From Escherichia coli (GTDB taxonomy: Bacteria; Pseudomonadota; Gammaproteobacteria; Enterobacterales; Enterobacteriaceae): DNA of 64,000 bases. The position numbers and the translations under genes are program-made. Where the stretch lies: the NCBI RefSeq assembly GCF_003018255.1, contig NZ_CP027440.1; one strand, 5' to 3'. Below the pieces are notes generated by a model. That model made no database searches. It was given only the letters and a program-made list of their open reading frames with translations, and was not told the DNA's origin. Position 1 is the stretch's first letter. Each line of letters starts with the position of its first letter. Shown here piece by piece: positions 1,164 to 59,317 of this stretch.

Positions 1164-2210
1164 TTACACTCCGGATTCGCGAAAATGGATATCGCTGACT
1201 GCGCGCAAACGCTCTGCGGCCTGTTCTGCGGTCAGGTCTCGCTGGGTTTCTGCCAGCATTTCATAACCAACCATAAATTTACGTACGGTGGCAGAGCGCA
1301 ACAGAGGCGGATAAAAGTGCGCGTGCAGCTGCCAGTGTTGATTCTCTTCGCCATTAAATGGCGCGCCGTGCCAGCCCATAGAGTAGGGGAAGGAGCACTG
1401 GAAGAGGTTGTCATAACGACTGGTCAGCTTTTTCAACGCCAGTGCCAAATCGCTGCGCTGGGCGTCGGTCAAATCGGTGATCCGTAAAACGTGGGCTTTG
1501 GGCAGCAGTAGCGTTTCGAACGGCCAGGCAGCCCAGTAAGGTACAACGGCTAACCAGTGTTCGGTTTCGACAACGGTACGGCTACCGTCTGCCAGCTCGC
1601 GCTGAACATAATCCACCAGCATTGGCGATTTCTGTTCGGCGAAATATTCTTTTTGCAGACGGTCTTCGCGCTCAGCTTCGTTAGGCAGGAAGCTATTTGC
1701 CCAAATCTGTCCGTGCGGATGCGGGTTAGAGCAGCCCATCGCCGCGCCTTTGTTTTCAAAGACCTGCACCCATGGGTACGTTTTCCCCAGTTCTGCGGTT
1801 TGCTCCTGCCAGGTTTTGACGATTTCCGTCAATGCCGCAACGCTGAGTTCTGGCAACGTTTTGCTGTGATCCGGTGAAAAGCAGATCACCCGACTGGTGC
1901 CACGCGCGCTCTGGCAACGCATCAGCGGATCGTGACTTTCCGGCGCATCTGGTGTGTCAGACATCAAAGCCGCAAAGTCATTAGTGAAAACGTAAGTCCC
2001 GGTGTAATCGGGGTTTTTATCGCCTGTCACCCGCACATTACCTGCGCAGAGGAAGCAATCTGGATCATGAGCAGGTAACACCTGTTTGGCTGGCGTTTCC
2101 TGCGCCCCCTGCCAGGGGCGCTTAGCGCGGTGCGGTGAAACCAGAATCCATTGCCCGGTGAGCGGGTTGTAGCGGCGATGTGGATGATCAACGGGATTAA
2201 ATTGCGTCAT
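1164..2210 (-). CDS. galT: galactose-1-phosphate uridylyltransferase
   Basis: 348-aa [36 protein letters not shown] with HPHGQIW active-site motif; lies between galE and galK. Confidence 0.96.
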
Positions 2211-2219
2211 GGTCGTTCC

Positions 2220-3236
2220 TTAATCGGGATATCCCTGTGGATGGCGTGACTGCCAGTGCCAGGTGTCCTGCGCCATTTCATCGAGTGTGCGCGTTACGCG
2301 CCAGTTCAGTTCACGGTCGGCTTTGCTGGCGTCCGCCCAGTAGGCCGGAAGGTCGCCCTCGCGACGCGGTGCAAAATGATAATTAACCGGTTTGCCGCAG
2401 GCTTTGCTGAAGGCATTAACCACGTCCAGCACGCTGCTGCCTACGCCAGCGCCGAGGTTATAGATGTGTACGCCTGGCTTGTTCGCCAGTTTTTCCATCG
2501 CCACGACGTGACCGTCCGCCAGATCCATTACGTGGATGTAATCGCGTACGCCAGTACCGTCTTCGGTCGGATAATCGTTACCAAAAATCGCCAGCGAGTC
2601 GCGACGGCCTACAGCAACCTGGGCGATGTATGGCATCAGGTTATTCGGAATGCCTTGCGGATCTTCGCCCATATCGCCCGACGGATGCGCGCCAACCGGG
2701 TTGAAGTAGCGCAGCAGGGCAATGCTCCAGTCCGGCTGGGCTTTTTGCAGATCGGTGAGGATCTGTTCCACCATCAGTTTGCTTTTGCCGTAAGGGCTTT
2801 GCGGTGTGCCGGTCGGGAAGCTTTCAACGTATGGAATTTTGGGCTGATCGCCATAGACGGTGGCGGAGGAGCTAAAAATAAAGTTTTTGACGTTCGCGGC
2901 GCGCATGGCGCTAATCAGGCGCAGGGTACCGTTGACATTGTTGTCGTAATATTCAAGCGGTTTTTGTACCGATTCGCCAACGGCTTTCAGCCCGGCGAAG
3001 TGGATCACAGTGTCGATAGCGTGATCGTGCAGGATCTCGGTCATCAACGCTTCGTTACGGATATCGCCTTCAACAAACGTTGGATGTTTGCCGCCTAAAC
3101 GCTCGATAACAGGCAGTACGCTGCGCTTACTGTTACAGAGGTTATCAAGAATGATGACATCATGACCGTTTTGCAGTAATTGCACACAGGTATGACTTCC
3201 AATGTAACCGCTACCACCGGTAACCAGAACTCTCAT
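2220..3236 (-). CDS. galE: UDP-glucose 4-epimerase
   Basis: ORF trimmed to internal Met giving MRVLVTGGSGYIGSH (Rossmann GxxGxxG), 338 aa; ATG at 3236 is preceded by the gal promoter sequence. Confidence 0.95.
   Translation of the reverse strand: MRVLVTGGSGYIGSHTCVQLLQNGHDVIILDNLCNSKRSVLPVIERLGGKHPTFVEGDIRNEALMTEILHDHAIDTVIHFAGLKAVGESVQKPLEYYDNNVNGTLRLISAMRAANVKNFIFSSSATVYGDQPKIPYVESFPTGTPQSPYGKSKLMVEQILTDLQKAQPDWSIALLRYFNPVGAHPSGDMGEDPQGIPNNLMPYIAQVAVGRRDSLAIFGNDYPTEDGTGVRDYIHVMDLADGHVVAMEKLANKPGVHIYNLGAGVGSSVLDVVNAFSKACGKPVNYHFAPRREGDLPAYWADASKADRELNWRVTRTLDEMAQDTWHWQSRHPQGYPD
3202..3217. promoter_or_regulatory. GalR/GalS internal operator OI inside galE
   Basis: Plus strand atgtaaccgctaccac is the reverse complement of GTGGTAGCGGTTACAT, located inside the 5' end of galE. 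Confidence 0.7.
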
Positions 3237-3314
3237 AATTCGCTCCATTAGGCTTATGGTATGAAATAACCATAGCATAACAAAGATGCGAAAAGTGTGA
3301 CATGGAATAAATTA
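3237..3314 (-). promoter_or_regulatory. gal operon promoter region (P1/P2, CRP site)
   Basis: Minus-strand sequence TTTATTCCATGTCACACTTTTCGCATCTTTGTTATGCTATGGTTATTTCATACCATAAGCC directly upstream of the galE ATG matches the classical galP1/P2 region. Confidence 0.75.
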
Positions 3315-3330
3315 GTGGAATCGTTTACAC
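3315..3330. promoter_or_regulatory. GalR/GalS external operator OE
   Basis: gtggaatcgtttacac is the reverse complement of GTGTAAACGATTCCAC, upstream of the gal promoters. Confidence 0.7.
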
Positions 3331-3439
3331 AAGAATTTAGCCGTTTTTTATGCGCCATTAATGGATTATAAAACAGAGGGTTTATGAATGATTGAGCTTT
3401 TTATCTGAAAAAAGTCGCGGTTTCATGCCTGGATGCGTC

Positions 3440-3482
3440 GAACTGTAGGCCGGAGAGGGCGCTTAGGCCGCCTCCGGTACAG
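3440..3482. repeat. GC-rich REP-like palindromic element / possible modF terminator hairpin
   Basis: gtaggccggagagggcgcttaggccgcctccggtac forms an imperfect palindrome just downstream of the modF stop. Confidence 0.4.
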
Positions 3483-3496
3483 TCAGCATTACCGAC

Positions 3497-4969
3497 TCAG
3501 TTTATTTTTGTCAGCGCATAGCGATAAAAGTCACCGTCCGGCACGAACTCAAGACGATGGGTAATACAGGCAGGCGCATCTTCAGCATGGTGCGAAACAA
3601 ACAACAATTGCGTTTCACCTTCGCTAATCAGCACATCAACAAACCGGCGGATAAGCTGGCGATTGAGCGGATCAAGCCCCTGTAGTGGTTCATCGAGAAT
3701 AAGCAACGTCGGATGTTTCACCAGCGCGCGGACGATCAGCGCCAGACGCTGCTGTCCCCAGGAAAGACTATGGAACGGAGCGTCAGCCGTGCGTTTATCA
3801 ATGCCGAGAATATCCAGCCACTGCTGCACCAGTTTTTGCTGGCGATCCGAAACGGCCTGATAAATGCCAATCGAATCAAAATAGCCAGAAAGGATCACAT
3901 TACGCACGGTAGTGCTGACCCGGTAATCCAGATGCAAACTACTGCTGACGTAACCGATATGCTTTTTGATATCCCAGATGGTTTCGCCGCTGCCGCGACG
4001 TCGTCCGAAAAGCGTCAAATCGTTGCTGTAACCTTGCGGATGATCGCCAGTAATCAGGCTTAATAACGTCGATTTTCCCGCGCCATTTGGCCCGACAATT
4101 TGCCAGTGCTCGCCTGGATTCACCTGCCAGCTAAGGTTATTAAGAATGGGGCGATCGTTATAAGAAACCACGCCGTTGTTCAGCACAATGCGCGGTTCGT
4201 TGGCGGGTAAGGCGTGACGTGCTGAAGGTTCATCCGGCTCCGGCAGTTGCACACCTTCAAGCTGTTCGCTATGTGCCAGTTGCGCGACGAGTGCTTGCTG
4301 GAGCAGTTCCTCTTTAGCGCCCGTTTCCGCTAACGTACAATCCGCCAGCACGCCAGCAAACTGGACAAATTCCGGGATCTCATCGAAGCGATTGAGCACC
4401 AGTACCAGAGTAATACCGGACTGATGTAACGAGGCGAGTAGCTCAGCCAGCTGCTGACGTGAGGCAACATCCAGGCCATCGAACGGCTCATCAAGAATCA
4501 ACAAGTCAGGCTCCGACATCAGCGCCTGACACAGCAGGGTTTTTCGCGTCTCGCCAGTGGAAAGGTATTTAAAGCGTCGGTCGAGGAGGGCGGTAATACC
4601 GAACTGCTGCGCCAGTTGCATGCAACGCGGTGCATCCTTTACTTCATCCTGAATGATTTCAGCCGTGGTACGCCCGGTGTCATCTTCGCCAGGGCCGAGC
4701 ATATCGGTGTTATTCCGCTGCCATTCGTCGCTGACGAGCTTTTGCAATTGCTCGAAGGAGAGACGAGTGATGTGGGAAAACTGGCTTTGCCGTTCACCTT
4801 TCAAAAGCGGAAGTTCCCCCGCCTGCGCGCGGGCCAGCGCCGATTTCCCGCTTCCATTCGAACCGACAAACGCCCAACTATCACCCGCGTTTAACGTTAG
4901 CTGAGGCAATTGCAGCGTTTTTGTGTCGCTAAGACGAAACGTGCCTTGCAAAATTTGCAACGATGACAT
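3497..4969 (-). CDS. modF: ABC-type ATPase with two ATP-binding cassettes (ModF)
   Basis: ORF trimmed to MSSLQILQGTFRLSD (490 aa); two Walker A motifs (GSNGSGKS and GPNGAGKS); adjacent to modE. Confidence 0.9.
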   Translation of the reverse strand: MSSLQILQGTFRLSDTKTLQLPQLTLNAGDSWAFVGSNGSGKSALARAQAGELPLLKGERQSQFSHITRLSFEQLQKLVSDEWQRNNTDMLGPGEDDTGRTTAEIIQDEVKDAPRCMQLAQQFGITALLDRRFKYLSTGETRKTLLCQALMSEPDLLILDEPFDGLDVASRQQLAELLASLHQSGITLVLVLNRFDEIPEFVQFAGVLADCTLAETGAKEELLQQALVAQLAHSEQLEGVQLPEPDEPSARHALPANEPRIVLNNGVVSYNDRPILNNLSWQVNPGEHWQIVGPNGAGKSTLLSLITGDHPQGYSNDLTLFGRRRGSGETIWDIKKHIGYVSSSLHLDYRVSTTVRNVILSGYFDSIGIYQAVSDRQQKLVQQWLDILGIDKRTADAPFHSLSWGQQRLALIVRALVKHPTLLILDEPLQGLDPLNRQLIRRFVDVLISEGETQLLFVSHHAEDAPACITHRLEFVPDGDFYRYALTKIN

Positions 4970-7733: not shown

Positions 7734-8792
7734 ATGCTGGAACTGAATTTTTCCCAGACGTTGGGCAACCATTGCCTGACCATTAATGAAACGCTGCCCG
7801 CCAATGGCATCACTGCTATCTTTGGCGTCTCCGGTGCCGGAAAAACTTCGCTGATTAACGCCATCAGTGGACTGACGCGCCCGCAAAAAGGGCGGATTGT
7901 CCTCAATGGGCGGGTACTAAATGATGCCGAAAAAGGTATCTGCCTGACGCCGGAAAAGCGTCGCGTTGGCTATGTTTTTCAGGATGCGCGGCTGTTCCCG
8001 CATTACAAAGTGCGTGGCAATCTGCGCTACGGCATGGCGAAAAGTATGGTCGATCAGTTCGATAAGCTGGTGGCGCTTTTAGGCATTGAACCGTTGCTTG
8101 ACCGTTTACCAGGCAGCCTGTCCGGAGGTGAAAAACAGCGCGTGGCGATTGGTCGGGCTTTGCTGACAGCACCGGAATTGCTGTTGCTGGATGAACCGCT
8201 GGCGTCACTGGATATTCCGCGTAAACGCGAACTGTTGCCTTATCTGCAACGGCTGACACGGGAAATCAACATTCCGATGTTGTATGTCAGCCATTCGCTG
8301 GATGAGATCCTCCATCTGGCAGACAGAGTGATGGTACTGGAAAACGGTCAGGTGAAAGCCTTTGGCGCGCTGGAGGAAGTGTGGGGCAGTAGCGTGATGA
8401 ATCCGTGGCTGCCGAAAGAGCAACAAAGTAGCATTCTGAAAGTGACGGTGCTTGAGCATCATCCGCATTACGCGATGACCGCGCTGGCGCTGGGCGATCA
8501 GCATTTGTGGGTCAATAAGCTGGACGAACCGCTGCAAGCTGCGCTACGCATCCGCATTCAGGCTTCCGATGTCTCGCTGGTTTTACAACCGCCGCAGCAA
8601 ACCAGCATTCGTAACGTATTGCGGGCAAAAGTGGTTAATAGTTATGACGACAACGGCCAGGTGGAAGTGGAGCTGGAAGTCGGCGGTAAAACGCTGTGGG
8701 CGCGTATCAGCCCGTGGGCCAGGGATGAACTGGCGATCAAACCTGGCCTGTGGCTGTATGCGCAAATTAAAAGTGTGTCGATAACCGCCTGA
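7734..8792 (+). CDS. modC: molybdate ABC transporter ATP-binding protein
   Basis: 352-aa ORF with Walker [18 protein letters not shown] signature and a C-terminal Mop-like domain. Confidence 0.95.
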
Positions 8793-9611
8793 TTAAATCA
8801 GGTGGCTATAAATGAACTGGGCAATGCTGTCGGTGGTGTTATCACCAATCACAATGTTGGCGCGCGCTTTTACTGCGTCATCGGCGTTGCCCATCGCCAC
8901 GCCTGTACCAGCGGCTTCCAGCATACTAATATCATTGAAGTTATCGCCGAAGGCCACGACGTTTTCCATCGACCAGCCTTGCGCCTCAACCCATTTCGTC
9001 AAACGTTTACCTTTGCTGTTGCCGCCGCGTGCAATATCAACCTGATCGTGCCAGGACCATTCACACTCCAGTCCCAGTTCATGTTCGACATGCTTACCAA
9101 AATGCTGCAATTGCGGCAGGTCATCGTGCGTCAGGGCGAACTTCCATACGGCGTTAACTTGTTGCGCCGTTTCAGCCAGAGAAGCGACTTGTGTGAAAGT
9201 CGGACGCTGTTCCGGCGGCAGGGTTTGCGCCCAGTTAGACGTGCGAATGACATGTCCGGTCGGGTGCTCATAGACCATTGCATCATCGACATACATCAGA
9301 CCGTGAATGTGGTGTTCATTCAGCATCTCAATGAGTTGCAGGGCTTTATTAACGGGCATTGGGTCCGCTTCCAGCACTGTTTTTGCATGATAATCATACA
9401 AATAGGTGCCATTACAGCAAATAGCAGGTGTATCCAGCGCCAGCGCCTGATAAAAAGGATGAATAGCGACGTGATGGCGACCTGTGACGATGATTAATTG
9501 ATAGCCTGCTTCGCGAGCGCGGGCCAGGGCTTCTATCGATGATGGAAGCAAGGTCTTTTTCGGGGTCAATAAGGTGCCGTCTAAGTCGAGAGCAATCACG
9601 CGTGTGGTCAT
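8793..9611 (-). CDS. ybhA: HAD-superfamily phosphatase (pyridoxal phosphate phosphatase YbhA)
   Basis: ORF trimmed to MTTRVIALDLDGTLL (HAD motif I DxDGT), 272 aa. Confidence 0.9.
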   Translation of the reverse strand: MTTRVIALDLDGTLLTPKKTLLPSSIEALARAREAGYQLIIVTGRHHVAIHPFYQALALDTPAICCNGTYLYDYHAKTVLEADPMPVNKALQLIEMLNEHHIHGLMYVDDAMVYEHPTGHVIRTSNWAQTLPPEQRPTFTQVASLAETAQQVNAVWKFALTHDDLPQLQHFGKHVEHELGLECEWSWHDQVDIARGGNSKGKRLTKWVEAQGWSMENVVAFGDNFNDISMLEAAGTGVAMGNADDAVKARANIVIGDNTTDSIAQFIYSHLI

Positions 9612-9729
9612 GGCGTATTCCAGATTAAGGTTAAGAATTTTCGTCTGCGCGAATGGTACACCGATACCACTATCGGACAAAATTCTGCGTTTTAATTCAG
9701 CATTCACCGCCAAAAGCGACTAATTTTAG

Positions 9730-10761
<1,032 letters not shown>

Positions 10762-10771
10762 CCGCTGATTT

Positions 10772-10800
10772 ACCCGGCGCAGTCTCTTCTGCGCCGGTGT
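10772..10800. terminator. bidirectional terminator hairpin between convergent pgl and ybhD
   Basis: acccggcgcag-tctcttc-tgcgccggtgt inverted repeat between the two stop codons. Confidence 0.6.
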
Positions 10801-10801
10801 A

Positions 10802-11755
10802 TTAACCTATCTCCTGTAACGCATGTCTCTGGCGTTCGACGATATTGGTCCACAAATTGTCTTTATCGTCAGTCCACAAATTAATCAGCAAGGCAAAAAA
10901 GCGTTCAGCTGCCGGAGAAAGCACGGCATCTTTGCGGCGAATAATCCCCAATGTCCGACGTATAACCGGTTCCACCAGCGGGATACCAATAATCGAAGAA
11001 TAGGGCGCATGGGGCATTGCCAGACCAGGAAGCGCCGAAATCCCCAGTCCCGCCTCCACCAGCCCTAATGACGTCGAAAGATGACGCACTTCGTAAAACC
11101 AGTCCAGCTTCCAGGGCTTGTCGGCTAGCTGTTGTTCTATCAATAGTCGGTTGCCGCTGGAGGAGCGTACGCCAATCATTTTGTAACCCACTAACTCCTG
11201 CCATTCTACAAGCTGCTTTTTGGCCAATGGATGGTCACGCCGACAGGCCAGCACGAACGGCTCGTTGACCAGTGGGGTAAAATCAATGGATGAATTTGTG
11301 ACGTTGTTCATGTTTATGCCAAAGTCTGATTCGTTACACAGCACCGATTCCATGCAATTATTCGTGCCTTGTTCCAGAATCCGCACTTTAATATTGGGAT
11401 ACAGCTCATTAAATTTACCGATTGCCAGCGGTAAAAAATAAAATACTGCGGTCGGAATACACGCTAACGTCACCATACCACGATGATAAGCATTCATATC
11501 ACGAATATTAAAAAGCGTTTCATCGAATTTTTTTATTAATTCCCGCGCCTCCGGGAGCAACCTTTTTCCTGCTTTTGTTAACGTAACCTTGCGAGTTGTA
11601 CGCTCAAATAGTTGAATGTGTAAATCTTCCTCCATCTTTTTTATTCTTCGCGTTAATGCAGGTTGCGTAATATTGAGTAATTTAGCAGCATTGTTAAATG
11701 AACTGGACTCTGCCAGTATGACAAATGCCTTCATACTTGATAATTCATGCTTCAT
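10802..11755 (-). CDS. ybhD: LysR-family transcriptional regulator
   Basis: ORF trimmed to MKHELSSMKAFVILAESSSFNNAAKLLNITQPALTRRIKKMEEDL (LysR HTH), 317 aa; divergent from ybhH. Confidence 0.88.
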   Translation of the reverse strand: MKHELSSMKAFVILAESSSFNNAAKLLNITQPALTRRIKKMEEDLHIQLFERTTRKVTLTKAGKRLLPEARELIKKFDETLFNIRDMNAYHRGMVTLACIPTAVFYFLPLAIGKFNELYPNIKVRILEQGTNNCMESVLCNESDFGINMNNVTNSSIDFTPLVNEPFVLACRRDHPLAKKQLVEWQELVGYKMIGVRSSSGNRLLIEQQLADKPWKLDWFYEVRHLSTSLGLVEAGLGISALPGLAMPHAPYSSIIGIPLVEPVIRRTLGIIRRKDAVLSPAAERFFALLINLWTDDKDNLWTNIVERQRHALQEIG

Positions 11756-11938
11756 TATTACTCCGGAAAATGGAAGCGACGATTTTGGGTGACTGGCAGT
11801 TAAAAATTTTACCTGCATTTAGCCAACTTAAATTAATGAAAAAATGTTATTAATCGTTGAGCTAAAGTCATTAGAGATGCTTTGCCCTTAATGTAACCAT
11901 ATCGCAATAAGTTATGTTTTTAAATTGAGGGCATTATT

Positions 11939-12991
11939 ATGAAAAAAATACCCTGCGTGATGATGCGAGGTGGAACCTCGAGGGGCGCGTTCCTGTTAGC
12001 GGAACATCTACCCGAAGATCAAACGCAGCGCGATAAAATATTGATGGCAATTATGGGTTCCGGTAACGATCTGGAAATTGACGGTATTGGCGGCGGTAAT
12101 CCGCTGACCAGTAAAGTCGCCATTATTAGCCGCTCCAGCGATCCGCGTGCAGATGTCGATTATCTGTTTGCTCAAGTTATCGTCCATGAGCAACGTGTCG
12201 ATACCACGCCTAACTGCGGCAATATGCTGTCTGGCGTTGGGGCATTCGCCATTGAAAATGGTTTGATTGCAGCGACTTCGCCAGTTACCCGCGTACGTAT
12301 CCGCAACGTCAATACGGGTACGTTTATCGAAGCTGATGTGCAAACGCCAAATGGTGTTGTCGAGTACGAGGGTAGCGCCAGAATTGACGGCGTACCGGGT
12401 ACTGCCGCACCGGTTGCGCTCACTTTCCTGAATGCCGCCGGAACGAAAACCGGAAAAGTCTTCCCGACGGATAATCAGATTGATTATTTTGACGATGTCC
12501 CGGTGACCTGTATCGATATGGCGATGCCAGTTGTCATTATTCCTGCTGAATATCTGGGAAAAACAGGCTATGAATTACCGGCAGAGCTGGATGCCGACAA
12601 AGCATTATTAGCCAGCATTGAATCTATCCGTCTACAAGCGGGTAAAGCAATGGGCTTAGGCGATGTCAGTAATATGGTTATCCCTAAACCTGTACTTATT
12701 TCTCCAGCGCAGAAAGGCGGGGCAATTAATGTGCGTTATTTTATGCCGCATTCTTGCCATCGCGCTTTGGCGATAACCGGTGCTATTGCTATTTCCTGTA
12801 GTTGTGCATTGGAAGGCACCGTCACCCGACAAATCGTCCCTTCTGTAGGATACGGCAATATCAATATTGAACACCCCAGTGGTGCGCTCGACGTTCATTT
12901 AAGTAATGAAGGTCAGGATGCCACGACGTTACGCGCATCTGTTATTCGGACGACAAGAAAAATATTTTCCGGTGAAGTTTATCTTCCCTGA
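11939..12991 (+). CDS. ybhH: PrpF/AcnD-accessory family putative isomerase
   Basis: 350-aa ORF MKKIPCVMMRGGTSRGAFLL, typical PrpF-like N-terminus. Confidence 0.88.
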   Translation: MKKIPCVMMRGGTSRGAFLLAEHLPEDQTQRDKILMAIMGSGNDLEIDGIGGGNPLTSKVAIISRSSDPRADVDYLFAQVIVHEQRVDTTPNCGNMLSGVGAFAIENGLIAATSPVTRVRIRNVNTGTFIEADVQTPNGVVEYEGSARIDGVPGTAAPVALTFLNAAGTKTGKVFPTDNQIDYFDDVPVTCIDMAMPVVIIPAEYLGKTGYELPAELDADKALLASIESIRLQAGKAMGLGDVSNMVIPKPVLISPAQKGGAINVRYFMPHSCHRALAITGAIAISCSCALEGTVTRQIVPSVGYGNINIEHPSGALDVHLSNEGQDATTLRASVIRTTRKIFSGEVYLP

Positions 12992-13066
12992 AAAATTTTG
13001 TTGTCGTGATAATGACAATCAATAAAGGAATTCTGTATGAGTCATACAGAAAGAACAGGATATTAA

Positions 13067-14500
13067 ATGAATAAAAAATCGTTATGGAAGCTAATTCTGA
13101 TATTAGCGATCCCATGTATTATTGGCTTTATGCCAGCTCCGGCAGGATTAAGCGAACTGGCGTGGGTGCTTTTTGGTATTTACCTGGCGGCCATTGTGGG
13201 GCTGGTTATCAAGCCTTTCCCGGAACCTGTCGTACTGTTAATTGCCGTCGCCGCATCGATGGTAGTGGTGGGTAACTTATCAGGTGGGGAATTTAAAACC
13301 ACCGCCGTATTAAGCGGTTACTCTTCCGGTACCACCTGGCTGGTGTTTTCTGCGTTTACTTTAAGCGCCGCGTTTGTAACCACAGGCTTAGGTAAACGTA
13401 TTGCCTATCTGCTGATTGGTAAAATTGGTAGCACTACCCTGGGTCTGGGTTACGTTACGGTATTTCTCGATCTGGTACTGGCTCCGGCAACACCGTCTAA
13501 CACCGCGCGTGCGGGCGGCATCGTGTTACCGATCATCAACAGCGTGGCAGTGGCTTTGGGATCAGAACCGGAAAAAAGTCCGCGTCGTGTTGGACATTAC
13601 CTGATGATGTCCATTTACATGGTCACTAAAACCACCAGCTATATGTTCTTTACCGCAATGGCGGGGAACATTCTGGCGCTGAAAATGATCAACGACATTC
13701 TGCACCTGCAAATTAGCTGGGGTGGATGGGCGCTGGCCGCTGGATTGCCGGGTATCATTATGCTGCTGGTCACCCCGCTGGTGATTTACACCATGTATCC
13801 GCCAGAAATTAAGAAGGTGGATAACAAAACCATCGCCAAAGCGGGCCTTGCCGAACTGGGACCGATGAAAATCCGCGAAAAAATGCTGCTCGGTGTCTTC
13901 GTGCTGGCGCTGCTGGGCTGGATTTTCAGTAAGTCACTGGGGGTTGATGAATCCACCGTGGCAATCGTTGTTATGGCGACTATGCTGCTGCTGGGTATCG
14001 TTACCTGGGAAGACGTGGTTAAAAATAAAGGCGGCTGGAATACCTTAATCTGGTACGGCGGTATTATCGGCTTAAGCTCCTTATTATCGAAAGTTAAATT
14101 CTTTGAATGGTTAGCTGAAGTCTTTAAAAATAACCTGGCATTTGATGGTCACGGTAACGTTGCTTTCTTCGTTATTATTTTCCTCAGCATCATCGTGCGT
14201 TATTTCTTCGCTTCCGGTAGTGCCTATATCGTTGCTATGTTACCTGTATTTGCCATGCTGGCGAACGTCTCCGGCGCACCGTTAATGTTAACCGCGCTGG
14301 CACTGTTGTTCTCTAACTCCTATGGCGGCATGGTTACTCACTATGGCGGCGCGGCAGGTCCGGTCATCTTTGGCGTGGGTTACAACGATATTAAATCCTG
14401 GTGGTTGGTCGGTGCGGTACTGACGATATTAACCTTCCTGGTGCATATCACCCTCGGCGTGTGGTGGTGGAATATGCTGATCGGCTGGAACATGCTGTAA
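13067..14500 (+). CDS. ybhI: DASS-family (divalent anion:Na+ symporter-like) transporter
   Basis: 477-aa polytopic membrane ORF MNKKSLWKLILILAIPCIIGFMPAP; follows ybhH. Confidence 0.88.
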   Translation: MNKKSLWKLILILAIPCIIGFMPAPAGLSELAWVLFGIYLAAIVGLVIKPFPEPVVLLIAVAASMVVVGNLSGGEFKTTAVLSGYSSGTTWLVFSAFTLSAAFVTTGLGKRIAYLLIGKIGSTTLGLGYVTVFLDLVLAPATPSNTARAGGIVLPIINSVAVALGSEPEKSPRRVGHYLMMSIYMVTKTTSYMFFTAMAGNILALKMINDILHLQISWGGWALAAGLPGIIMLLVTPLVIYTMYPPEIKKVDNKTIAKAGLAELGPMKIREKMLLGVFVLALLGWIFSKSLGVDESTVAIVVMATMLLLGIVTWEDVVKNKGGWNTLIWYGGIIGLSSLLSKVKFFEWLAEVFKNNLAFDGHGNVAFFVIIFLSIIVRYFFASGSAYIVAMLPVFAMLANVSGAPLMLTALALLFSNSYGGMVTHYGGAAGPVIFGVGYNDIKSWWLVGAVLTILTFLVHITLGVWWWNMLIGWNML

Positions 14501-14502
14501 AT

Positions 14503-14628
14503 ATACTCGTCATACTTCAAGTTGCATGTGCTGCGTCTGCGTTCGCTCACCCCAGTCACTTACTTATGTAAGCTCCTGGGGATTCACTCGCTTGTCGCCT
14601 TCCTGCAACTCGAATTATTTAGAGTATA
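14503..14628. repeat. ERIC/IRU element (enterobacterial repetitive intergenic consensus), complete 126-bp copy
   Basis: Contains cgctcaccccagtcacttactt (reverse complement of the ERIC2 primer) and atgtaagctcctggggattcac (ERIC1R), bounded by tatactcgtcatac and agagtata. Confidence 0.9.
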
Positions 14629-14658
14629 TCCATTTATTATCTTTCTGCGCACTTCACG

Positions 14659-16943
14659 GTGCGCAGATATCTGGAGCATTTGATGATCAAGTTATCTGAA
14701 AAAGGCGTGTTTCTCGCCAGCAATAACGAAATAATTGCCGAAGAACATTTCACCGGCGAAATAAAAAAAGAAGAAGCAAAAAAAGGCACTATTGCCTGGT
14801 CTATTCTCTCTTCTCATAATACGTCCGGAAATATGGATAAACTTAAAATTAAGTTTGATTCATTAGCCTCTCACGATATTACCTTTGTTGGTATTGTACA
14901 GACCGCTAAAGCGTCCAGTATGGAACGTTTCCCGCTGCCGTATGTGCTGACCAACTGCCATAACTCACTCTGTGCTGTGGGCGGCACCATTAACGGTGAT
15001 GACCATGTTTTTGGTTTATCGGCGGCCCAGCGTTATGGCGGTATTTTTGTGCCACCGCATATTGCGGTCATCCATCAATATATGCGTGAAATGATGGCGG
15101 CGGCGGCAAAATGATCCTCGGGTCAGACAGCCATACCCGTTACGGTGCGTTAGGGACAATGGCGGTTGGCGAGGGCGGCGGCGAGTTGGTAAAACAGCTG
15201 CTTAATGACACCTGGGATATCGACTATCCGGGCGTGGTTGCGGTGCATCTGACCGGAAAACCTGCGCCGTATGTGGGGCCGCAGGATGTGGCGCTGGCTA
15301 TCATCGGTGCCGTGTTCAAAAACGGTTACGTCAAAAACAAAGTGATGGAGTTCGTAGGTCCCGGTGTTGCAGCGCTCTCTACCGATTTCCGTAACAGCGT
15401 TGACGTGATGACCACTGAAACGACCTGTTTAAGTTCTGTCTGGCAAACCGATGAAGAAGTCCATAACTGGCTGGCGCTGCACGGTCGCGGCCAGGATTAC
15501 TGCCAACTTAACCCTCAACCAATGGCGTACTACGATGGCTGCATCAGCGTTGATTTAAGCGCCATCAAACCAATGATTGCGCTGCCATTCCACCCGAGCA
15601 ACGTGTATGAAATCGACACGCTGAACCAGAACCTGACCGACATTCTGCGTGAGATTGAAATTGAGTCCGAACGCGTGGCGCACGGTAAAGCCAAACTCTC
15701 GCTGCTGGATAAAGTGGAAAATGGTCGCCTGAAAGTGCAGCAGGGGATTATCGCGGGCTGTTCTGGCGGTAACTACGAAAACGTCATCGCGGCGGCGAAT
15801 GCGCTGCGCGGTCAATCCTGCGGCAACGATACCTTCTCATTGGCGGTTTACCCGTCATCACAGCCGGTGTTTATGGATCTCGCCAAAAAAGGTGTGGTAG
15901 CAGATTTGATTGGCGCAGGCGCAATCATCAGAACCGCGTTCTGCGGCCCATGCTTTGGTGCGGGCGATACGCCAATCAACAACGGTTTGAGTATTCGCCA
16001 CACCACGCGTAACTTCCCGAACCGCGAAGGCTCTAAGCCAGCTAATGGGCAGATGTCAGCGGTGGCGTTGATGGACGCTCGTTCTATCGCTGCAACTGCG
16101 GCAAACGGTGGCTATTTAACCTCTGCCAGCGAACTCGATTGCTGGGACAACGTGCCGGAGTACGCCTTCGATGTAACGCCGTATAAAAATCGCGTCTATC
16201 AAGGCTTTGTGAAAGGGGCGACCCAGCAACCGCTGATCTACGGACCGAACATCAAAGACTGGCCGGAATTGGGCGCGCTGACTGACAATATCGTCCTCAA
16301 AGTGTGCTCGAAGATCCTCGACGAAGTCACCACCACCGACGAACTGATTCCTTCCGGTGAAACCTCTTCTTATCGTTCAAATCCGATTGGTCTGGCGGAG
16401 TTTACCCTGTCACGCCGCGATCCCGGTTATGTTGGCAGAAGTAAAGCGACTGCTGAGCTGGAAAATCAGCGTCTGGCGGGGAATGTCAGCGAGCTGACAG
16501 AGGTGTTTGCGCGCATTAAGCAGATTGCTGGTCAGGAGCATATTGATCCGCTGCAAACTGAAATTGGCAGCATGGTCTATGCGGTGAAACCAGGCGATGG
16601 TTCTGCGCGTGAGCAGGCGGCGAGCTGCCAGCGTGTGATTGGCGGTCTGGCGAATATTGCCGAGGAATACGCGACTAAACGCTACCGTTCTAACGTCATC
16701 AACTGGGGGATGTTACCGCTGCAAATGGCGGAAGCACCAACGTTTGAAGTGGGGGATTACATTTACATCCCTGGCATTAAAGCGGCGCTGGATAATCCTG
16801 GAACGACGTTTAAAGGTTATGTGATCCATGAAGATGCACCGGTAACGGAGATTACGCTCTATATGGAAAGTCTGACTGCTGAAGAGCGCGAGATTATCAA
16901 GGCGGGTAGTTTGATTAACTTCAATAAAAACCGTCAGATGTAA
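14659..16943 (+). pseudogene. ybhJ: aconitase-family putative hydratase YbhJ, apparently interrupted by a frameshift
   Basis: Two ORF pieces in different frames: 14659..15114 (151 aa, ending [10 protein letters not shown]) and 15111..16943 (610 aa, [15 protein letters not shown] with aconitase DSHT motif). The downstream frame is open only from 15090, so the break lies in the gcggcggcggc tract at 15090..15112. Confidence 0.75.
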
Positions 16944-16954: not shown

Positions 16955-17070
<116 letters not shown>

Positions 17071-17083
17071 TAGTTAACAGCTC

Positions 17084-49624: not shown

Positions 49625-51907
49625 TCAGAAATGCATATTGGCCGTGAGCAAGAAGGTTCTTGGCTCGCCCGGGTGATAACGGTAGCCGCTCTTGTTGATT
49701 GAGGCGACGTAATCGGTATCAAACAGGTTGTAGACGTTTAGCTGGAAGTCGAGATTGCGATTAACCCGATACCCCAGTTTAGCGTCGGCGACCCAATAAC
49801 CTTCGGTAAACGCTGGCGTTCCCACCGCGCCGTCAGAACCTTTATGCATACTGCCGATATAGCGTGCGCCCGCACCAACGGAAATATCATCGGTTGCCTG
49901 ATACTGGCTCCATAAGGTAAAGGCGTGCTCCGGGGTATACGGCAGCGATGAGGAACCATCCTGGGCAACATCTTTGCCGTTTTTGATGGTTGCTTTTTGC
50001 TGGGTATAGCCGCCAATCACCTGCCACGCGGGAGTGATATTCCCGGCCACGGATATCTCATAGCCTTCGACGCGTTTCTTACCGTATTGCGAGTAAGTTC
50101 CGTCATCATTTTGCTCAACTTCATTTTTGATATCAGTACGGAACAGCGCGGCGGTGAGCAACAGGCGTTTATCCAGAACCTGCCATTTGGTGCCAATCTC
50201 GCTGGTGTTGGCTTTTTGCGGTTTAAAATCGGTGCGGTTGGCACTGTTACCGCTGCCAGACTGCGCAAGGGCGAAGTTGTTGCCGCCCGGAGGCTGCTGG
50301 GAAACGGCATAGTTAATATAGACATTGCCGTTTTCCGTCAGGTGATACAGCGCCCCGGCTTTCCAGTTCACCAGATTGCCCGACTTGGCGGTATCGACGG
50401 TGGTGACCGGAGAACCTTTTGCCACGCCAGCAGGGCAGGTGATGGCACCGCGTCCGCTGCCGCCGCAGGCGGTGGCACTGTCATATTCAGTATGATAATT
50501 ATCCAGACGGATCCCGCCGTTCAGCTCAAAATCACGGGTGATTTGCAGCGTATCGAAGGCGTAAATTGCGAAGGTATCCGTCTGACCATTGGCGTTTGCG
50601 CCGTTGCGCGTCAGGCCGCCGGGATGAATGCTGCTGTCAGGATGATAAATATTTACCGCAGGTAACGTCACCGGATTAACGCCGTAGTTAGTCTGCGTTT
50701 CACGGGTAAATTCCACGCCGGTACTGACATCATGACCGATAGCGCCGGTATAGAACGTCGAGGTCAGGTTGGTCTGGTTGGTGAGAATTTTATTACTCAC
50801 ATCTTTAGTATTCGCCGTGCGTGACCAGGTCCAGCTATTCACATCGCTGGTGGGCTGGGTAATATTCGACGCCCCGCCCATAATCGCCGTCATCAGGTAA
50901 TCCTGCTTCACGCGCGACCAACGGGTAGTATTGCGAATGGTGGTGTTATCGTTGATGTCGTGCTCAAAACGCATGGTAGCGGTGTCGGTGGTCGAATCGT
51001 CGTAATCGGAATCCGTGCCGTAAAAGTTATGAGTATCAACTTTTCCGGAATGATTCAGAGCCGCTGTTCCCGCAGATGGGGCAGAATAACCCGGTAAACC
51101 GATAGTCGGAATGCCGCCGTCTGGCGTGTTGTGCTGGGTGACATGCAGATAATTAAGATACAAACGATTCGCTGTACCAAGGCCAAAAGCGACAGAAGGG
51201 GCGACGCCGTAACGCTCATTTTTGACTTTGTCGCGTCCGGCATCGTGCGTTTTTTCGCCCATTACATTCAGGCGCACCGCAGTGGTATCACCAATGACCT
51301 GATTGACGTCCAGCGTGCCGCGGCGGAACCAGGCGCTGCCAATACTGGCGGAGGCGTCAATGCCGGAATCATTGCGCGGCTGTTTGCTGATCATATTGAT
51401 CGAGCCTGTCGGCGCGCTGCGCCCGTAGTCGGTGCCGGACGGCCCTTTAATTACTTCGACCTGCTCGGTATTGAAGGTGTCGCGCGAGACGCTGCCGATA
51501 TCGCGAATGCCATCGATATAAATACTGTTAGAGGTATCGGCACCGCGCATATAAATGGCGTCGCCAGTGGTGGAGTTACCGTTCTCACCCGCAAAAAACG
51601 CACCCACGCCGGGGACGTTTTTGAGCGCGTCGGTAAGGTTGGTTGCACCCTGATCTTTAATCACTTGTTCAGAAATCACCGTCATCGTGCGGGTAGTATC
51701 CGCTACCGGACGCGAGAATTTCGGATCGGCAGATTGTTGTGGCGCATAAAGCGAAGGCGTTGATGCTTCGACAACCAGCGTGTCATCCGCGTTAGCTTGC
51801 CCTTCGGCAGCGAGTGCCTGCGCCACAGGCGTAATACCAATACAAAGACCGGCAAAGAACGTGAGCGAATGAAATTGTCTGGCAGGGAAATTGCGATTGT
51901 TTTCCAT
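49625..51907 (-). CDS. fiu: TonB-dependent catecholate siderophore receptor Fiu
   Basis: 760-aa ORF with signal peptide, TonB box region and C-terminal beta-barrel ending in F. Confidence 0.95.
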
Positions 51908-52011
51908 TTTGCAGGTGACTTTTTCTTATATGGTGAAATTTTCACTGTCACGAGAAAGCATCTCTGCGGATGCGATGCCACTGTTAATCCCGTGATAGCG
52001 TCCGTGCAAGT

Positions 52012-52037
52012 GATAATAATTTTGATAAGCATTATCA
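52012..52037. promoter_or_regulatory. Fur box in the fiu promoter
   Basis: gataataattttgataagcattatca matches the GATAATGATAATCATTATC-type consensus about 100 bp upstream of the fiu start. Confidence 0.7.
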
Positions 52038-52171
52038 CTTGGCGCGATTTTCTATCACCCATTGCGCGAAAAAGAAATACATTTATTTACATTGCGTTCA
52101 TATTTGATGTTTTTTGCTTACAAATTGGACGAAAACTGCATCCAGAGGCGAATGCAGTTACGTTGGTGGGG

Positions 52172-52432
52172 TTATTTGTAGATGATTGCAGTACCGAACA
52201 TCTGGTCATTTCCGCCTGCGGAATTAATGACATAACCTTTCGCGCCTTGTTCGCGCGCTTTTTCTGCCAGTTTATCCTCCAGATCGCTTAGGTTTGATGC
52301 GCCAGTTGCCGAAACGGTACCGGCGGGCCGTAGTTGACCACTGTCCAGGTTACTCATCGGTTGCGCGGCATAAGCCGTGAGAGAGATTCCGCTCAGGACG
52401 GTGGCAATCAGTAGTGTGAGGCACTTTTTCAT
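52172..52432 (-). CDS. mcbA: DUF1471 (YhcN-family) small secreted protein McbA
   Basis: ORF trimmed to MKKCLTLLIATVLSGISLTAYA (86 aa), C-terminal ...GTAIIYK; paralog of ybiJ. Confidence 0.88.
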   Translation of the reverse strand: MKKCLTLLIATVLSGISLTAYAAQPMSNLDSGQLRPAGTVSATGASNLSDLEDKLAEKAREQGAKGYVINSAGGNDQMFGTAIIYK

Positions 52433-52707
52433 AATGACATCCTCATAAATACAACGGGTAGTGCCAGATAAGTGTAGGTCGCCTGCGCGATGAAAATGAC
52501 GCAAAAAATTGACAGAGATGCGCTTATTTTTTGAACAATATATTTTTACAAAATAAGATAAATCAATGACATGCATGATGATGATTTTTATGGTGAATTA
52601 CCATAAACCATAGCCATGTGAAGGTTTTTAGAAATGATAAACGCAGCCAGATATTTACCCTGTCGCGTTATGCGGGTATCTTACGCCGCTGCTTAAAGGA
52701 GAATGCT

Positions 52708-53634
52708 ATGTCCGCCCAGAAACCGGGGTTGCATCCGCGCAACCGTCATCACAGCCGCTACGATCTCGCCACGCTTTGTCAGGTCAATCCTGAACTCAGG
52801 CAATTCCTCACGCTTACACCCGCCGGGGAGCAAAGCGTAGACTTTGCCAATCCGCTGGCGGTGAAGGCGCTCAATAAGGCGTTGCTGGCCCATTTTTACG
52901 CCGTAGCGAACTGGGATATCCCGGACGGTTTTCTCTGCCCGCCAGTACCGGGCCGGGCGGATTATATTCATCACCTTGCCGATTTACTGGCTGAAGCAAG
53001 CGGAACAATTCCAGCTAATGCCAGCATTCTGGATATCGGTGTTGGTGCGAACTGTATTTATCCGCTGATTGGCGTACATGAATATGGCTGGCGTTTTACC
53101 GGTAGTGAAACCAGCAGCCAGGCGTTAAGCAGTGCGCAGGCGATCATCAGTGCTAATCCGGGGCTTAACCGCGCCATTCGTCTGCGTCGGCAAAAAGAGA
53201 GTGGGGCGATTTTTAACGGCATCATCCATAAAAACGAGCAATACGATGCGACCTTGTGTAACCCGCCATTCCACGATTCCGCCGCTGCGGCACGGGCAGG
53301 TAGTGAACGTAAACGCCGTAACCTGAGGCTGAACAAAGACGATGCACTGAACTTTGGTGGTCAGCAACAGGAGTTGTGGTGTGAAGGCGGTGAGGTCGCT
53401 TTTATCAAAAAGATGATTGAAGAGAGCAAAGGCTTCGCGAAGCAGGTGATGTGGTTTACCTCGCTGGTATCTCGTGGTGAAAACTTACCGCCGTTGTATC
53501 GTGCTTTGACGGACGTAGGTGCGGTGAAGGTGGTAAAAAAAGAGATGGCCCAGGGGCAAAAGCAGAGCCGCTTTATAGCCTGGACCTTTATGAACGACGA
53601 GCAGCGCCGCCGTTTTGTCAATCGCCAGCGTTAA
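52708..53634 (+). CDS. rlmF: 23S rRNA m6A1618 methyltransferase
   Basis: ORF trimmed to [23 protein letters not shown] (308 aa) with SAM motif [14 protein letters not shown] and NPPF. Confidence 0.9.
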
Positions 53635-55856: not shown

Positions 55857-55972
55857 GACTCCTCCAGTGAGAAAACAGAGCAAAAAGATAAGTATAGATG
55901 CTGGAGGAGGGGCGATTTTAAATGAGAGGAATCTGGTGTGCCTCCCTTTCGGAGGAAAGGGAGGCTGAGAAG

Positions 55973-56695
55973 TTAAGAGACGTGCTGCAAAAATTCCTGC
56001 AAGCGCTGGCTCGGTGGGTTCTTGATCAACACCTGCGGATCGCCATCTTCCGCAATCCGGCCTTTGTCGATAAAGATCAGGCGCGAAGCTACTTTCTCGG
56101 CAAAACCGATTTCGTGTGTCACGATCACCATCGTCATCCCTTCTTCAGCCAGATCCTGCATAACCTTCAGCACTTCATGGCGCAGTTCCGGGTCAAGAGC
56201 GGAAGTCGGTTCATCAAACAGCATCATTTTCGGCTTCACCGCCAGCGCGCGTGCGATCGCCACACGCTGCTGTTGACCACCAGAAAGTTCGGAAGGGTAG
56301 TGATGTGCACGTTCTGCCAGACCGACTTTCGCCAGCAGCTCACGCGCCAGTTTTTCCGCCTCTTCTTTGTTCGCGCCACGCACGCGTAGCGGACCAAACA
56401 TGACGTTTTCCAGCGCCGTCAGATGCGGGAAGAGGTAAAACTGCTGGAACACCATACCTGCTTCCTGGCGAATCAGGCGCTCGTCAACTTTCGGATCGTT
56501 AACCTTCAGGCCATCGACAATCAGATCGCCGGAAGTGATTTCTTCCAGTTTGTTGATGCAGCGCAGCAGGGTCGATTTACCGGAACCGGACGGCCCGATA
56601 ATCACCACGACTTCGCCCTGAGCAATGTTCAAATCGATATTGTGCAGCACCTGGGTTGGACCAAAATGCTTGGAGACGTTTTTAAATTCAATCAC
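55973..56695 (-). CDS. glnQ: glutamine ABC transporter ATP-binding protein
   Basis: 240-aa ORF with GPSGSGKST and LSGGQQQR. Confidence 0.96.
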
Positions 56696-57351
56696 AGGAT
56701 TTTCATCCTTCTTTCCAGACGACGCAGAATAAAGCTCAGCACCAGGGTAATAATCAGATAGAACACCGCCACGGCGCTCCAGATCTCAAGGGCGCGGAAG
56801 TTACCGGCAATAATTTCTTGCCCCTGACGGGTCAGTTCCGCCACGCCGATAACAATAAACAGCGAGGTGTCTTTAATGCTGATGATCCACTGGTTACCCA
56901 GCGGCGGCAGCATACGACGCAGTGCCAGCGGTAAAATGACGTAGCGAATGGTTTCCCAACGTGAAAGACCGAGCGCCAGTCCTGCTTCACGAAAACCTTT
57001 GTGAATAGACAGCACCGCACCACGCGTGATTTCCGCAATGTATGCGCCGGAGTTGATCATGATGGTGACCACCGCCGCAGTAAATGGGTCGATGCGTAAG
57101 TCGTTAAATGCCATCGGCAGGGCGAAATAGATAAACATCACCTGGACGACGATAGGTGTGCCGCGGATCACTTCAATAAAGACCAGCGCGACGTGGTTGG
57201 CTATCCAACCACCGAAGGTGCGTGCAAAACCTGCCAGCAATCCGATCACCAGGCCGCCAGCCAGACCGAGGACCGAGATCCACAGGGTCATTTTGGCACC
57301 TTCAATCAGAAGCGGAATGGCAGGCCAGATGGCACTCCAGTCAAACTGCAT
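56692..57351 (-). CDS. glnP: glutamine ABC transporter permease
   Basis: 219-aa membrane ORF; overlaps the glnQ start. Confidence 0.95.
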
Positions 57352-57399
57352 ATGTTGTTCCTGTTACCGTGGTGTAAATAATCAAATTCAGGGTAATTA

Positions 57400-57480
57400 A
57401 TGGCCCCGGAGCGGGTTTGCGCCCCTCACCCTAATCCTCTCCCCAGAGGGGAGAGGGAACTGCCAGTGCGCCTTACAGGC
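57400..57480. repeat. GC-rich hairpin-containing intergenic repeat between glnH and glnP
   Basis: gcccctcaccctaatcctctccccagaggggagagggaactgcc with stem cctctcccc/ggggagagg; family (boxC- or REP-related) not resolved by eye. Confidence 0.5.
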
Positions 57481-57489
57481 GTAGCGTTA

Positions 57490-58251
<762 letters not shown>

Positions 58252-58275
58252 CTATCCACGGGACGATCCCCTGCG

Positions 58276-58639: not shown

Positions 58640-59317
<678 letters not shown>

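Follow-up and report, generated by a model that had tools for sequence, protein, structure and literature searches.

The ybhD-ybhHIJ cluster of Escherichia coli as a candidate YbhD-repressed module for an imported trans-aconitate-type acid

The ybhD-ybhHIJ cluster of Escherichia coli, which we analysed in a 64,000-nt stretch of contig NZ_CP027440.1 (assembly GCF_003018255.1; hereafter the window), encodes a LysR-type regulator, a PrpF-superfamily isomerase, a DASS-family carrier and an aconitase-family hydratase. A divergent LysR gene facing an operon that begins with a PrpF-superfamily isomerase gene and includes an importer, as in ybhD-ybhHI, is also the plan of tarR-tarAB, the validated trans-aconitate assimilation system of Bacillus velezensis FZB42 (PMC11495376), in which TarA is an aconitate isomerase, and both systems carry AT-rich palindromic hexamers in the shared control region. 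The two differ in that the importer TarB belongs to the MFS whereas the ybh importer is a DASS protein (possibly a functional analogue), in that tar lacks a dedicated aconitase gene whereas the ybh module has YbhJ, and in that TarR is an activator whereas published data suggest that YbhD is a repressor. Homologues of TarA with 37–40.5% identity are listed for Citrobacter, Klebsiella, E. fergusonii, Shigella and Edwardsiella (PMC11495376, Table S6), and the same study found such homologues to have aconitate isomerase activity in 7 of the 10 isolates it examined. The AcnD-PrpF pair of the Shewanella oneidensis 2-methylcitrate cycle (PMC5690661) joins an Fe-S dehydratase to a PrpF-superfamily isomerase on aconitate-type intermediates, a pairing like that of YbhJ with YbhH, but YbhJ is not AcnD, YbhH is not PrpF, and no prpB or prpC is linked to the ybh genes; the ybh module also has a transporter, which indicates an imported substrate. 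Of the homologues of YbhH that have been characterised, the closest is LigU/GalD, the (4E)-oxalomesaconate delta-isomerase that serves protocatechuate 4,5-cleavage and gallate breakdown and moves a double bond of an unsaturated tricarboxylate by a 1,3-allylic shift, whereas the E. coli module lacks an adjacent dioxygenase, LigJ/GalB or LigK/GalC gene and has the DASS carrier and the hydratase as its partners. Mitochondrial aconitase (5ACN/7ACN/1NIS), finally, shares with YbhJ its length, domain order, three Cys ligands and catalytic Asp/His/Glu/Ser/Arg residues, although the two are only about 21% identical and differ at aconitase positions Q72, D100 and N258.

The gene names are those of the RefSeq annotation of the nearest complete genome, NZ_AP045067, in which ybhD is labelled a LysR gene (317 aa), ybhH a 4-oxalomesaconate tautomerase, ybhI an anion permease and ybhJ a hydratase (753 aa). 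We propose that the four genes may form a substrate-inducible, YbhD-repressed uptake-and-funnelling module for an unsaturated tricarboxylate, with trans-aconitate or a close analogue as the best candidate, a reading that we offer tentatively and judge somewhat more apt to be wrong than right. YbhD, bound to an ATTAAT-N11-ATTAAT dyad, would keep ybhH, and with it ybhI and ybhJ, switched off until an effector appears; the repression is taken from the literature, and the site and the effector are our own suggestions. YbhI, a carrier of the CitT/TtdT/2-oxoglutarate-malate translocator subgroup, would import the acid, probably in exchange for a C4-dicarboxylate, and YbhH would use Lys59 and Cys93 to shift the double bond by 1,3-allylic proton transfer, turning trans-aconitate into cis-aconitate if it follows the chemistry of its family. 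YbhJ, whose activity is suggested by the gene context of its homologues, would hydrate this product to citrate or isocitrate, which could enter the tricarboxylic acid (TCA) cycle or, anaerobically, pass to citrate lyase. The original prediction had stated that no substrate is established for the cluster, and none was found in the literature that we searched, nor were enzymological data on YbhH, YbhI or YbhJ or assay data on YbhH or YbhD.

The isomerase step rests on the family membership of YbhH, which matched the NCBIfam model NF033377 (4-oxalomesaconate tautomerase) over its full length with 511.7 bits, above the equivalog cut-off of 440, whereas the PrpF model TIGR02334 gave 185.6 bits against a cut-off of 440.55. 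The protein is represented in the PDB by entry 6OTV, deposited as a ‘putative isomerase’, which matches it over 350 of 350 residues with 2 substitutions. Its closest characterised relative is LigU (6P3H/J/K; E = 1e-92, 45.5% identity), and K59 and C93 of YbhH align with K66 and C100 of LigU, the catalytic Lys/Cys pair. The next-best PDB relative after LigU is 3-methylitaconate isomerase (3G7K), with 229 bits over residues 3–241 only. LigU and the aconitate isomerases carry out one and the same 1,3-allylic proton shift, on homologous tricarboxylates.

For the hydratase, an intact sequence was taken from locus L001. This YbhJ passed only its own NCBIfam model, NF008503 ‘hydratase’ (1541 bits), and fell far below the cut-offs for AcnA (79–97 bits vs 686–945), AcnB (31–51 vs 782–1287) and AcnD (63.5 vs 1419.85). 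With AcnD and PrpF both below their cut-offs and no prp genes in the window, a methylcitrate AcnD/PrpF module was rejected, so that of the likeness to ‘methylcitrate or aconitate-isomer’ modules drawn in the original prediction the first half falls away and the second fits the comparative evidence.

Alignment of YbhJ to pig mitochondrial aconitase (HMMER, 5ACN) placed C360 (in IAGCSGG) and C421 and C424 (in FCGPCFG) on the cluster ligands C358, C421 and C424, and H147, D165, H167, E262, R447, R452, S642 and R644 of the pig enzyme are all conserved, the carboxylate-binding arginines being kept in YbhJ as R443, R448 and R643. Loss of the Fe-S ligand cysteines had been raised beforehand as a reason why YbhJ might not be a hydratase; all three are kept, as is the catalytic Asp/His/Ser/Arg set. 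By motif spacing only, R565 of YbhJ would be the counterpart of aconitase R580, the alignment of that segment (TTDELIPSG...R565) to aconitase being below significance. Across 28 aligned family members neither the cluster cysteines nor any of the catalytic or carboxylate-binding residues vary. Because aconitase Q72, D100 and N258 are replaced in YbhJ by H64, C92 and a Val, respectively, its substrate pocket is not identical to that of aconitase. An AlphaFold model of YbhJ (pLDDT 86.8, pTM 0.83) found mitochondrial aconitases (1NIS/7ACN) as its best Foldseek matches, at full length over about 800 columns (E = 2e-48, TM 0.69/0.69), and predicts a four-domain mitochondrial-aconitase fold with domain 4 at the C-terminus. 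Two distant relatives, P0148 and P0154, were considered as YbhJ orthologues and rejected on account of lost cysteines, a lost DSH motif and adjacent Macro-domain genes. Proteins of this type lie in two metagenome-assembled genomes (GCA_947589235, locus L007 at 8001–10966; GCA_947589555, L008 at 1175–4287), measure 704–753 aa and are 37–38% identical to YbhJ; they lack DSH and all three Cys ligands, have a Macro-domain gene directly 3′, and may be a non-catalytic offshoot of the aconitase-like family.

We surveyed YbhJ loci in species-representative genomes (more than 599 loci, of which the best 80 were analysed; enterics are under-sampled there, and Edwardsiella and Klebsiella were added separately), clustering the neighbouring genes and annotating them with NCBIfam. 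Few full-length relatives were found in a search of 1.84 billion cluster representatives, and the best 80 loci encode proteins 66–74% identical to YbhJ, except for two enteric loci at 85–98%. Their hosts are mostly gut anaerobes of the Firmicutes and Actinobacteria (Lachnospiraceae, Collinsella, Acidaminococcus, Megasphaera, Ellagibacter), and the 66–74% homologues have the same pattern at 23 of 25 checked active-site positions. At six loci (L013, L014, L020, L021, L029, L031) the YbhJ-like gene is followed by a citrate synthase gene and an isocitrate-dehydrogenase-like gene, a set that also occurs divergently arranged in L033; the neighbouring citrate synthase scored 574.5 bits with PRK14032 (cut-off 426). 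At five others (L011, L015, L036, L079, L087) it lies beside the CitD/CitE/CitF genes of citrate lyase. A divergent LysR gene is often present, and in Collinsella the YbhJ-like gene has housekeeping neighbours, dnaK and clpB being examples. In the TCA cycle, aconitase acts after citrate synthase and before isocitrate dehydrogenase, and because the homologues adjoin the genes of its two neighbouring steps, the gene context of these 66–74% homologues argues that the YbhJ family are very probably true aconitases. In the gut Clostridia, a PrpF-like gene is missing from most of these loci and a YbhI homologue from all of them, and the protein there seems to supply the aconitase step in a biosynthetic oxidative TCA branch or in citrate fermentation rather than to be part of an uptake module. 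Three anaerobe loci pack together two or three aconitase-family genes of the YbhJ type, a 40–48% paralogous type and the PRK07229 type (L006, 199–10202; L035, 8567–14660; L019, 7250–12432), accompanied by Iso_dh-like (L006, L019), PrpF-like (L006, L035) and RraA/LigK-like genes (L019, L035), which suggests that the tricarboxylate pathway there goes beyond a simple isomerisation of aconitate.

The complete set is an enteric one. Among the best 80 loci only those of E. albertii and Citrobacter have homologues of both YbhH and YbhI in place, and outside the enterics no locus has a YbhI homologue, so inherited synteny of the YbhH-I-J triad beyond the enterics was rejected. With Edwardsiella tarda and K. 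aerogenes included, the ybhD/H/I/J arrangement was found in four enteric genera at three chromosomal sites. In K. aerogenes (CP166156; L091, 4170–6945 and 11016–16286) the LysR, PrpF-like, DASS and YbhJ genes are joined by a second DASS gene of 420 aa between ybhI and ybhJ; genes of the citrate-fermentation type, namely a sensor kinase/response regulator pair and oxaloacetate decarboxylase beta and alpha genes, are found a few kb away. In Edwardsiella tarda (CP100797), at another chromosomal site, all four genes are 84–93% identical to those of E. coli, which is, in our impression, high for a species of the Hafniaceae and hints at transfer between enterics; ybhI occupies two reading frames there with no gene called (L090, 5483–6912) and is probably a pseudogene in that strain, ybhD, ybhH and ybhJ being intact. 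PrpF-like genes 34–41% identical to YbhH occur near YbhJ-like genes in L006, L021, L035, L036, L067 and L087, and lie within 10 kb in L006, L021, L035, L036 and L087. The most telling locus is L067, of Acidaminococcus fermentans, where the E. coli order recurs: the PrpF-like gene, whose product is 40% identical to YbhH, comes first, followed by a gene for a MatC/CitMHS carrier and a YbhJ-like gene (68%); this organism ferments trans-aconitate via citrate (PMC3035267). We read the recurring isomerase-carrier-hydratase set as a probable convergent sign of functional coupling. To the Firmicute genes, YbhH is about 40% and YbhJ about 70% identical, and since these affinities differ, the enteric module was assembled from parts with different histories, and the likeness to A. 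fermentans reflects convergent assembly rather than inherited synteny.

Repression by YbhD has support in the literature. Rodionova et al. 2022 (PMC9068703) described the same cluster, listed a ChIP-exo site for YbhD and strong up-regulation of ybhH in a ybhD deletion, and cited Nac control and a growth phenotype of the ybhD deletion only with L-malate, tentatively labelling the cluster ‘L-malate utilisation related’. Because ybhH is strongly up in the deletion, YbhD behaves as a repressor. YbhD is a generic LysR-type regulator without an equivalog assignment: 54 NCBIfam models of LysR-type transcriptional regulators match it, many at full length, and none reaches its equivalog cut-off, the best being PsrA with 256.6 bits against 540. 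The L-proline-binding PsrA of Serratia was rejected as a guide to the effector of YbhD, a score of that size being uninformative. The part of the ybhD open reading frame (ORF) beyond 11755, up to 11818, is a mechanical extension only. In the divergent control region, the left hexamer of the ATTAAT-N11-ATTAAT dyad is invariant and the right one semi-conserved in an alignment of E. coli, E. albertii, Citrobacter, Edwardsiella and K. aerogenes, and the dyad is a plausible T-N11-A LysR site at which YbhD may bind. A consensus scan of the plus strand between ybhD and ybhH gave no good sigma-70 match.

YbhI matched the DASS model TIGR00785 with 553.5 bits (cut-off 198.6) over residues 23–468. It presumably belongs to the same DASS family as E. 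coli CitT (citrate/succinate) and TtdT (tartrate/succinate), TC 2.A.47.3. CitT and TtdT are each encoded beside enzymes that process the imported acid. YbhI is also 35.7% identical to the spinach 2-oxoglutarate/malate translocator, TC 2.A.47.3.1 (PMC9068703, supplement). Within ybhI, 13532–13783 on the minus strand gave a sub-threshold Rfam match to the Yersinia antisense sRNA Ysr283 (41.2 bits, gathering score 58), which may merely mirror conservation of the coding sequence.

The gaps in the operon measure 75 bp (ybhH-ybhI) and 182 bp (ybhI-ybhJ), the latter occupied by an element at 14506–14629. From exact matches to both ERIC primer sequences we take this element to be a complete ERIC/IRU repeat. 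It folds as a long hairpin (−44.4 kcal/mol, z = −6.6), gives a sub-threshold Rfam match to the V_AS5 (Vibrio AS5) model (46.9 bits) and is lacking at the same position in Citrobacter, where the ybhI-ybhJ gap is 71 bp. A promoter and terminator consensus scan found fewer promoter-like sites than in shuffled controls and no convincing internal promoter or terminator between the genes, and the anatomy of the locus, with its 182-bp ERIC gap, is compatible with co-transcription of ybhJ with ybhHI. After ybhJ, REP-type units gave two sub-threshold Rfam matches to naRNA4, a REP-derived model (16963–17015 and 17037–17078).

Several observations weigh against a trans-aconitate module. No use or sensing of trans-aconitate by E. 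coli and no activity of YbhH or YbhJ is reported in the literature searched, and the closest characterised relative of YbhH is LigU, not TarA or PrpF. With AcnA and AcnB already present in E. coli, a third aconitase for this purpose calls for an explanation; that it resists inhibition by trans-aconitate would be one, which is pure conjecture. In the work of Blank et al. 2002, inactivation of ybhJ reportedly left the residual aconitase activity of an acnAB mutant unaffected, although ybhJ may simply have been repressed there. The Iso_dh-like neighbours of the YbhJ homologues score below every curated NCBIfam cut-off, the differing affinities of YbhH and YbhJ to Firmicute genes speak for separate origins, and the sole reported ybhD-deletion phenotype involves L-malate (PMC9068703), an acid that could be the counter-substrate of the antiporter. 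A more specific reading, in which YbhJ would be a third functional E. coli aconitase of the gut Firmicute/Actinobacteria type, probably acquired by horizontal transfer and brought together with a DASS antiporter and an isomerase of the LigU clade in an operon that YbhD represses and that serves the use of dietary trans-aconitate or a closely related plant acid, we regard as doubtful.

The L-malate phenotype and the label given to the cluster by its authors, taken with the resemblance of YbhI to the 2-oxoglutarate/malate translocator, are also the starting point for a C4/C5-dicarboxylate module, in which YbhI would carry malate or an itaconate-, citraconate- or mesaconate-type acid, YbhH would act like methylitaconate delta-isomerase and YbhJ like a dimethylmalate- or citramalate-type dehydratase. 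The rank of 3G7K among the PDB relatives of YbhH and one UniRef name for an Edwardsiella YbhJ (‘2,3-dimethylmalate dehydratase large subunit’) point the same way. However, malate requires neither an allylic isomerase nor an aconitase-type hydratase and could be exchanged for the true substrate, the 3G7K match leaves the C-terminal part of YbhH uncovered, the carboxylate-binding arginines of aconitase are kept (with R565 as a presumed fourth position), and the gene contexts are citrate-centred; we find this alternative improbable. Slightly less probable still is an oxalomesaconate-type pathway, in which YbhH would be a true LigU/GalD orthologue acting, after import, on 4-oxalomesaconate or a similar keto-tricarboxylate that arises when aromatic rings are cleaved, and YbhJ would replace LigJ/GalB, giving 4-carboxy-4-hydroxy-2-oxoadipate and then pyruvate and oxaloacetate. 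The NF033377 score, the 45.5% identity to LigU and the aligned Lys/Cys pair all favour it, the LigJ reaction would be chemically analogous to cis-aconitate hydration, and RraA/LigK-like genes (PRK06201, 249 vs 231 bits) stand beside YbhJ-like or other aconitase genes in L019, L035 and L079, with a PrpF-like gene in L035 only. Yet in the nearest genome no ring-cleavage dioxygenase, LigJ/GalB or LigK/GalC gene is annotated from about 11 kb upstream to 48 kb downstream of the module, the 66–74% homologues of YbhJ keep company with citrate synthase, isocitrate dehydrogenase and citrate lyase genes, which indicates citrate-type substrates, and products of oxygen-dependent ring cleavage would be no obvious nutrient in the gut.

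The least probable of these readings in our estimation, and a very improbable one, is that the cluster is not catabolic and that YbhJ, as an aconitase paralogue, is non-catalytic or has a regulatory role such as sensing stress or iron. Krisko et al. 2014 (PMC4054840), with reference to Blank et al. 2002, described YbhJ as a paralogue that is catalytically inactive and reported H2O2 sensitivity and low NADPH in a ybhJ deletion, NADPH also being lowered by deletion of icd; relatives without the cysteines do exist, as P0148 and P0154 show. Against this, YbhJ and all aligned relatives of at least 40% identity keep every cluster ligand and catalytic residue, and in the four enteric genera transporter and isomerase genes accompany ybhJ, with a single LysR regulator for the set. 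The low NADPH is compatible with YbhJ supplying isocitrate. An 18-fold rise of ybhJ mRNA has been reported in co-culture with Chlamydomonas (PMC10972114).

As a finding of a genome scan the locus is annotated, partly characterised and structurally ordinary. The window's ORF list has 10802–11818 on the minus strand and, on the plus strand, 11939–12991, 13067–14500 and the abutting 14659–15114 and 15111–16943, which bears out the earlier description of a LysR gene divergent from a PrpF-like isomerase, a DASS carrier and an aconitase-family hydratase. To call it uncharacterised was overstated, given the deposited YbhH structure (6OTV) and the published YbhD binding and ybhH de-repression (PMC9068703). 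Megablast placed the site on the E. coli chromosome between pgl and ybhC and found that 5,316 of 5,426 complete E. coli genomes match at least 80% of the 6.4-kb region at a single site; ybhD-ybhHIJ is a core gene set, present in about 98–99% of them. In this search a genome had a median of 27 matching places, to which the ERIC element probably adds. The features of the locus are collected in Table 1.

Table 1. Coordinates in the window of the ybhD-ybhHIJ genes, their control region, repeats and sequence changes.
Feature	Position	Strand	Basis or remark
ybhD, LysR-type transcriptional regulator, 317 aa	10802..11755	-	RefSeq start in nearest genome = 11755
Divergent ybhD/ybhH control region, 183 bp, AT-rich	11756..11938	.	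GC 0.37
Candidate YbhD recognition site, dyad ATTAAT-N11-ATTAAT	11832..11854	.	T-N11-A type
ybhH, PrpF-superfamily 1,3-allylic isomerase, LigU/GalD clade, 350 aa	11939..12991	+	NF033377
ybhI, DASS-family anion carrier, 477 aa	13067..14500	+	TIGR00785
ERIC/IRU repeat element, ybhI-ybhJ gap	14506..14629	.	Sequence and hairpin
ybhJ, aconitase-family [4Fe-4S] hydratase, 753 aa if intact, interrupted in the window	14683..16943	+	NF008503
Private missense G79S in ybhJ	14917	+	Comparison with nearest genome
ybhJ lesion: 1-bp G deletion and premature TGA overlapping Met144 ATG	15097..15114	+	Comparison with nearest genome
REP-type palindromic repeats, convergent ybhJ/ybhC gap	16963..17078	.	Rfam naRNA4, sub-threshold

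In the window itself ybhJ is interrupted, as the original prediction had noticed, and the lesion is real in the given sequence. Compared with NZ_AP045067, one G is lost from GGCGGGCGGCGGC at about 15097–15100, which turns ...MMAGGGK-M144... into ...MMAAAAK-stop, with the TGA at 15112–15114 overlapping the Met144 ATG (15111–13; ATGA). What remains is a 150-aa N-terminal product (14683–15114) and a 610-aa ORF (15111–16943). An ATGA overlap such as that at 15111–15114 is a geometry typical of translational coupling. If translation re-initiates, the 610-aa fragment could conceivably give a two-piece YbhJ in which GGG is changed to AAA, which is conjecture. The deletion allele was found in none of 4,895 complete E. 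coli genomes matching a 60-bp probe across the site.

Two further differences from NZ_AP045067 lie in the module. At 14917 the window has A where the nearest genome has G, giving YbhJ G79S at a glycine invariant in the 28 aligned family members (0 of 5,373 matching genomes, 60-base probe), and at 11812, inside the divergent control region, it has C instead of A (0 of 5,098, 60-base probe). The full 64 kb differ from that genome by 7 substitutions and 1 indel, so that 3 of 8 differences fall inside the 6.1-kb module (binomial p of about 0.03, a post hoc estimate); in the first 50 kb alone the figure was 3 of 4, weakening to 3 of 8 over the full length. This clustering is weak evidence of relaxed or loss-favouring selection in the lineage. 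Outside the module, position 18758 (ybhB) has G where the nearest genome has A, a variant shared with 1 of 4,849 matching complete genomes, and four further substitutions lie within 49761–64000.

Either ybhJ was inactivated very recently in this strain alone, with G79S alongside, or the frameshift is an assembly or sequencing error; unless it is such an error, the YbhJ step is broken in this sequence by the frameshift and G79S. That the lesion is an artefact and the module intact in the strain we consider nearly, though not quite, an even call. The loss of a single base from a few consecutive Gs of a GC-rich triplet repeat, the absence of the allele from all matching complete genomes and the 99.97–99.99% identity of the rest of the window to the nearest genome are what an error would look like, whereas the second private and probably damaging change 181 bp upstream, the clustering of differences in the module and the existence of other ybhJ lesions at low frequency in E. 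coli argue for a true inactivation. Such alleles include P0036 (634 aa) and P0066 with in-frame loss of residues 418–536, P0029 (648 aa) with loss of about 479–583, and P0001 with an internal duplication in ybhJ. The 119-residue deletion removes the CGPC cluster ligands together with R443 and R448, and probe counts suggest that large in-frame ybhJ deletion alleles occur in at most about 5–9 of the 5,426 complete genomes. Species-wide decay of ybhJ was rejected: a probe for the 357 bp missing from the deletion alleles matched 5,375 of 5,426 genomes and a flanking probe 5,380. A junction probe for the in-frame deletion was uninformative, its halves being joined across the intact segment. The suggestion that the module is decaying holds for this strain at most, ybhJ being present in about 99% of the 5,426 genomes, none of which has this deletion.

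The cluster, the 6OTV structure, YbhD binding and ybhH de-repression were already known; new here are the active-site and fold analysis of YbhJ, the Firmicute and Actinobacteria gene contexts, the same gene order in A. fermentans and the K. aerogenes context. The frameshift, one private event in this strain, may or may not be real, and the value of the analysis lies in a concrete substrate hypothesis and in the indication that YbhJ may be a real Firmicute-type aconitase rather than an inactive paralogue. If this is true, four E. coli y-genes would be assigned at once, the best-studied bacterium would gain a third aconitase, and the statement in the literature that YbhJ is inactive would be corrected. 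Trans-aconitate is an abundant plant acid and a major organic acid of grasses, and the module would then provide a route for its use by enterics that is relevant to rumen and gut ecology.

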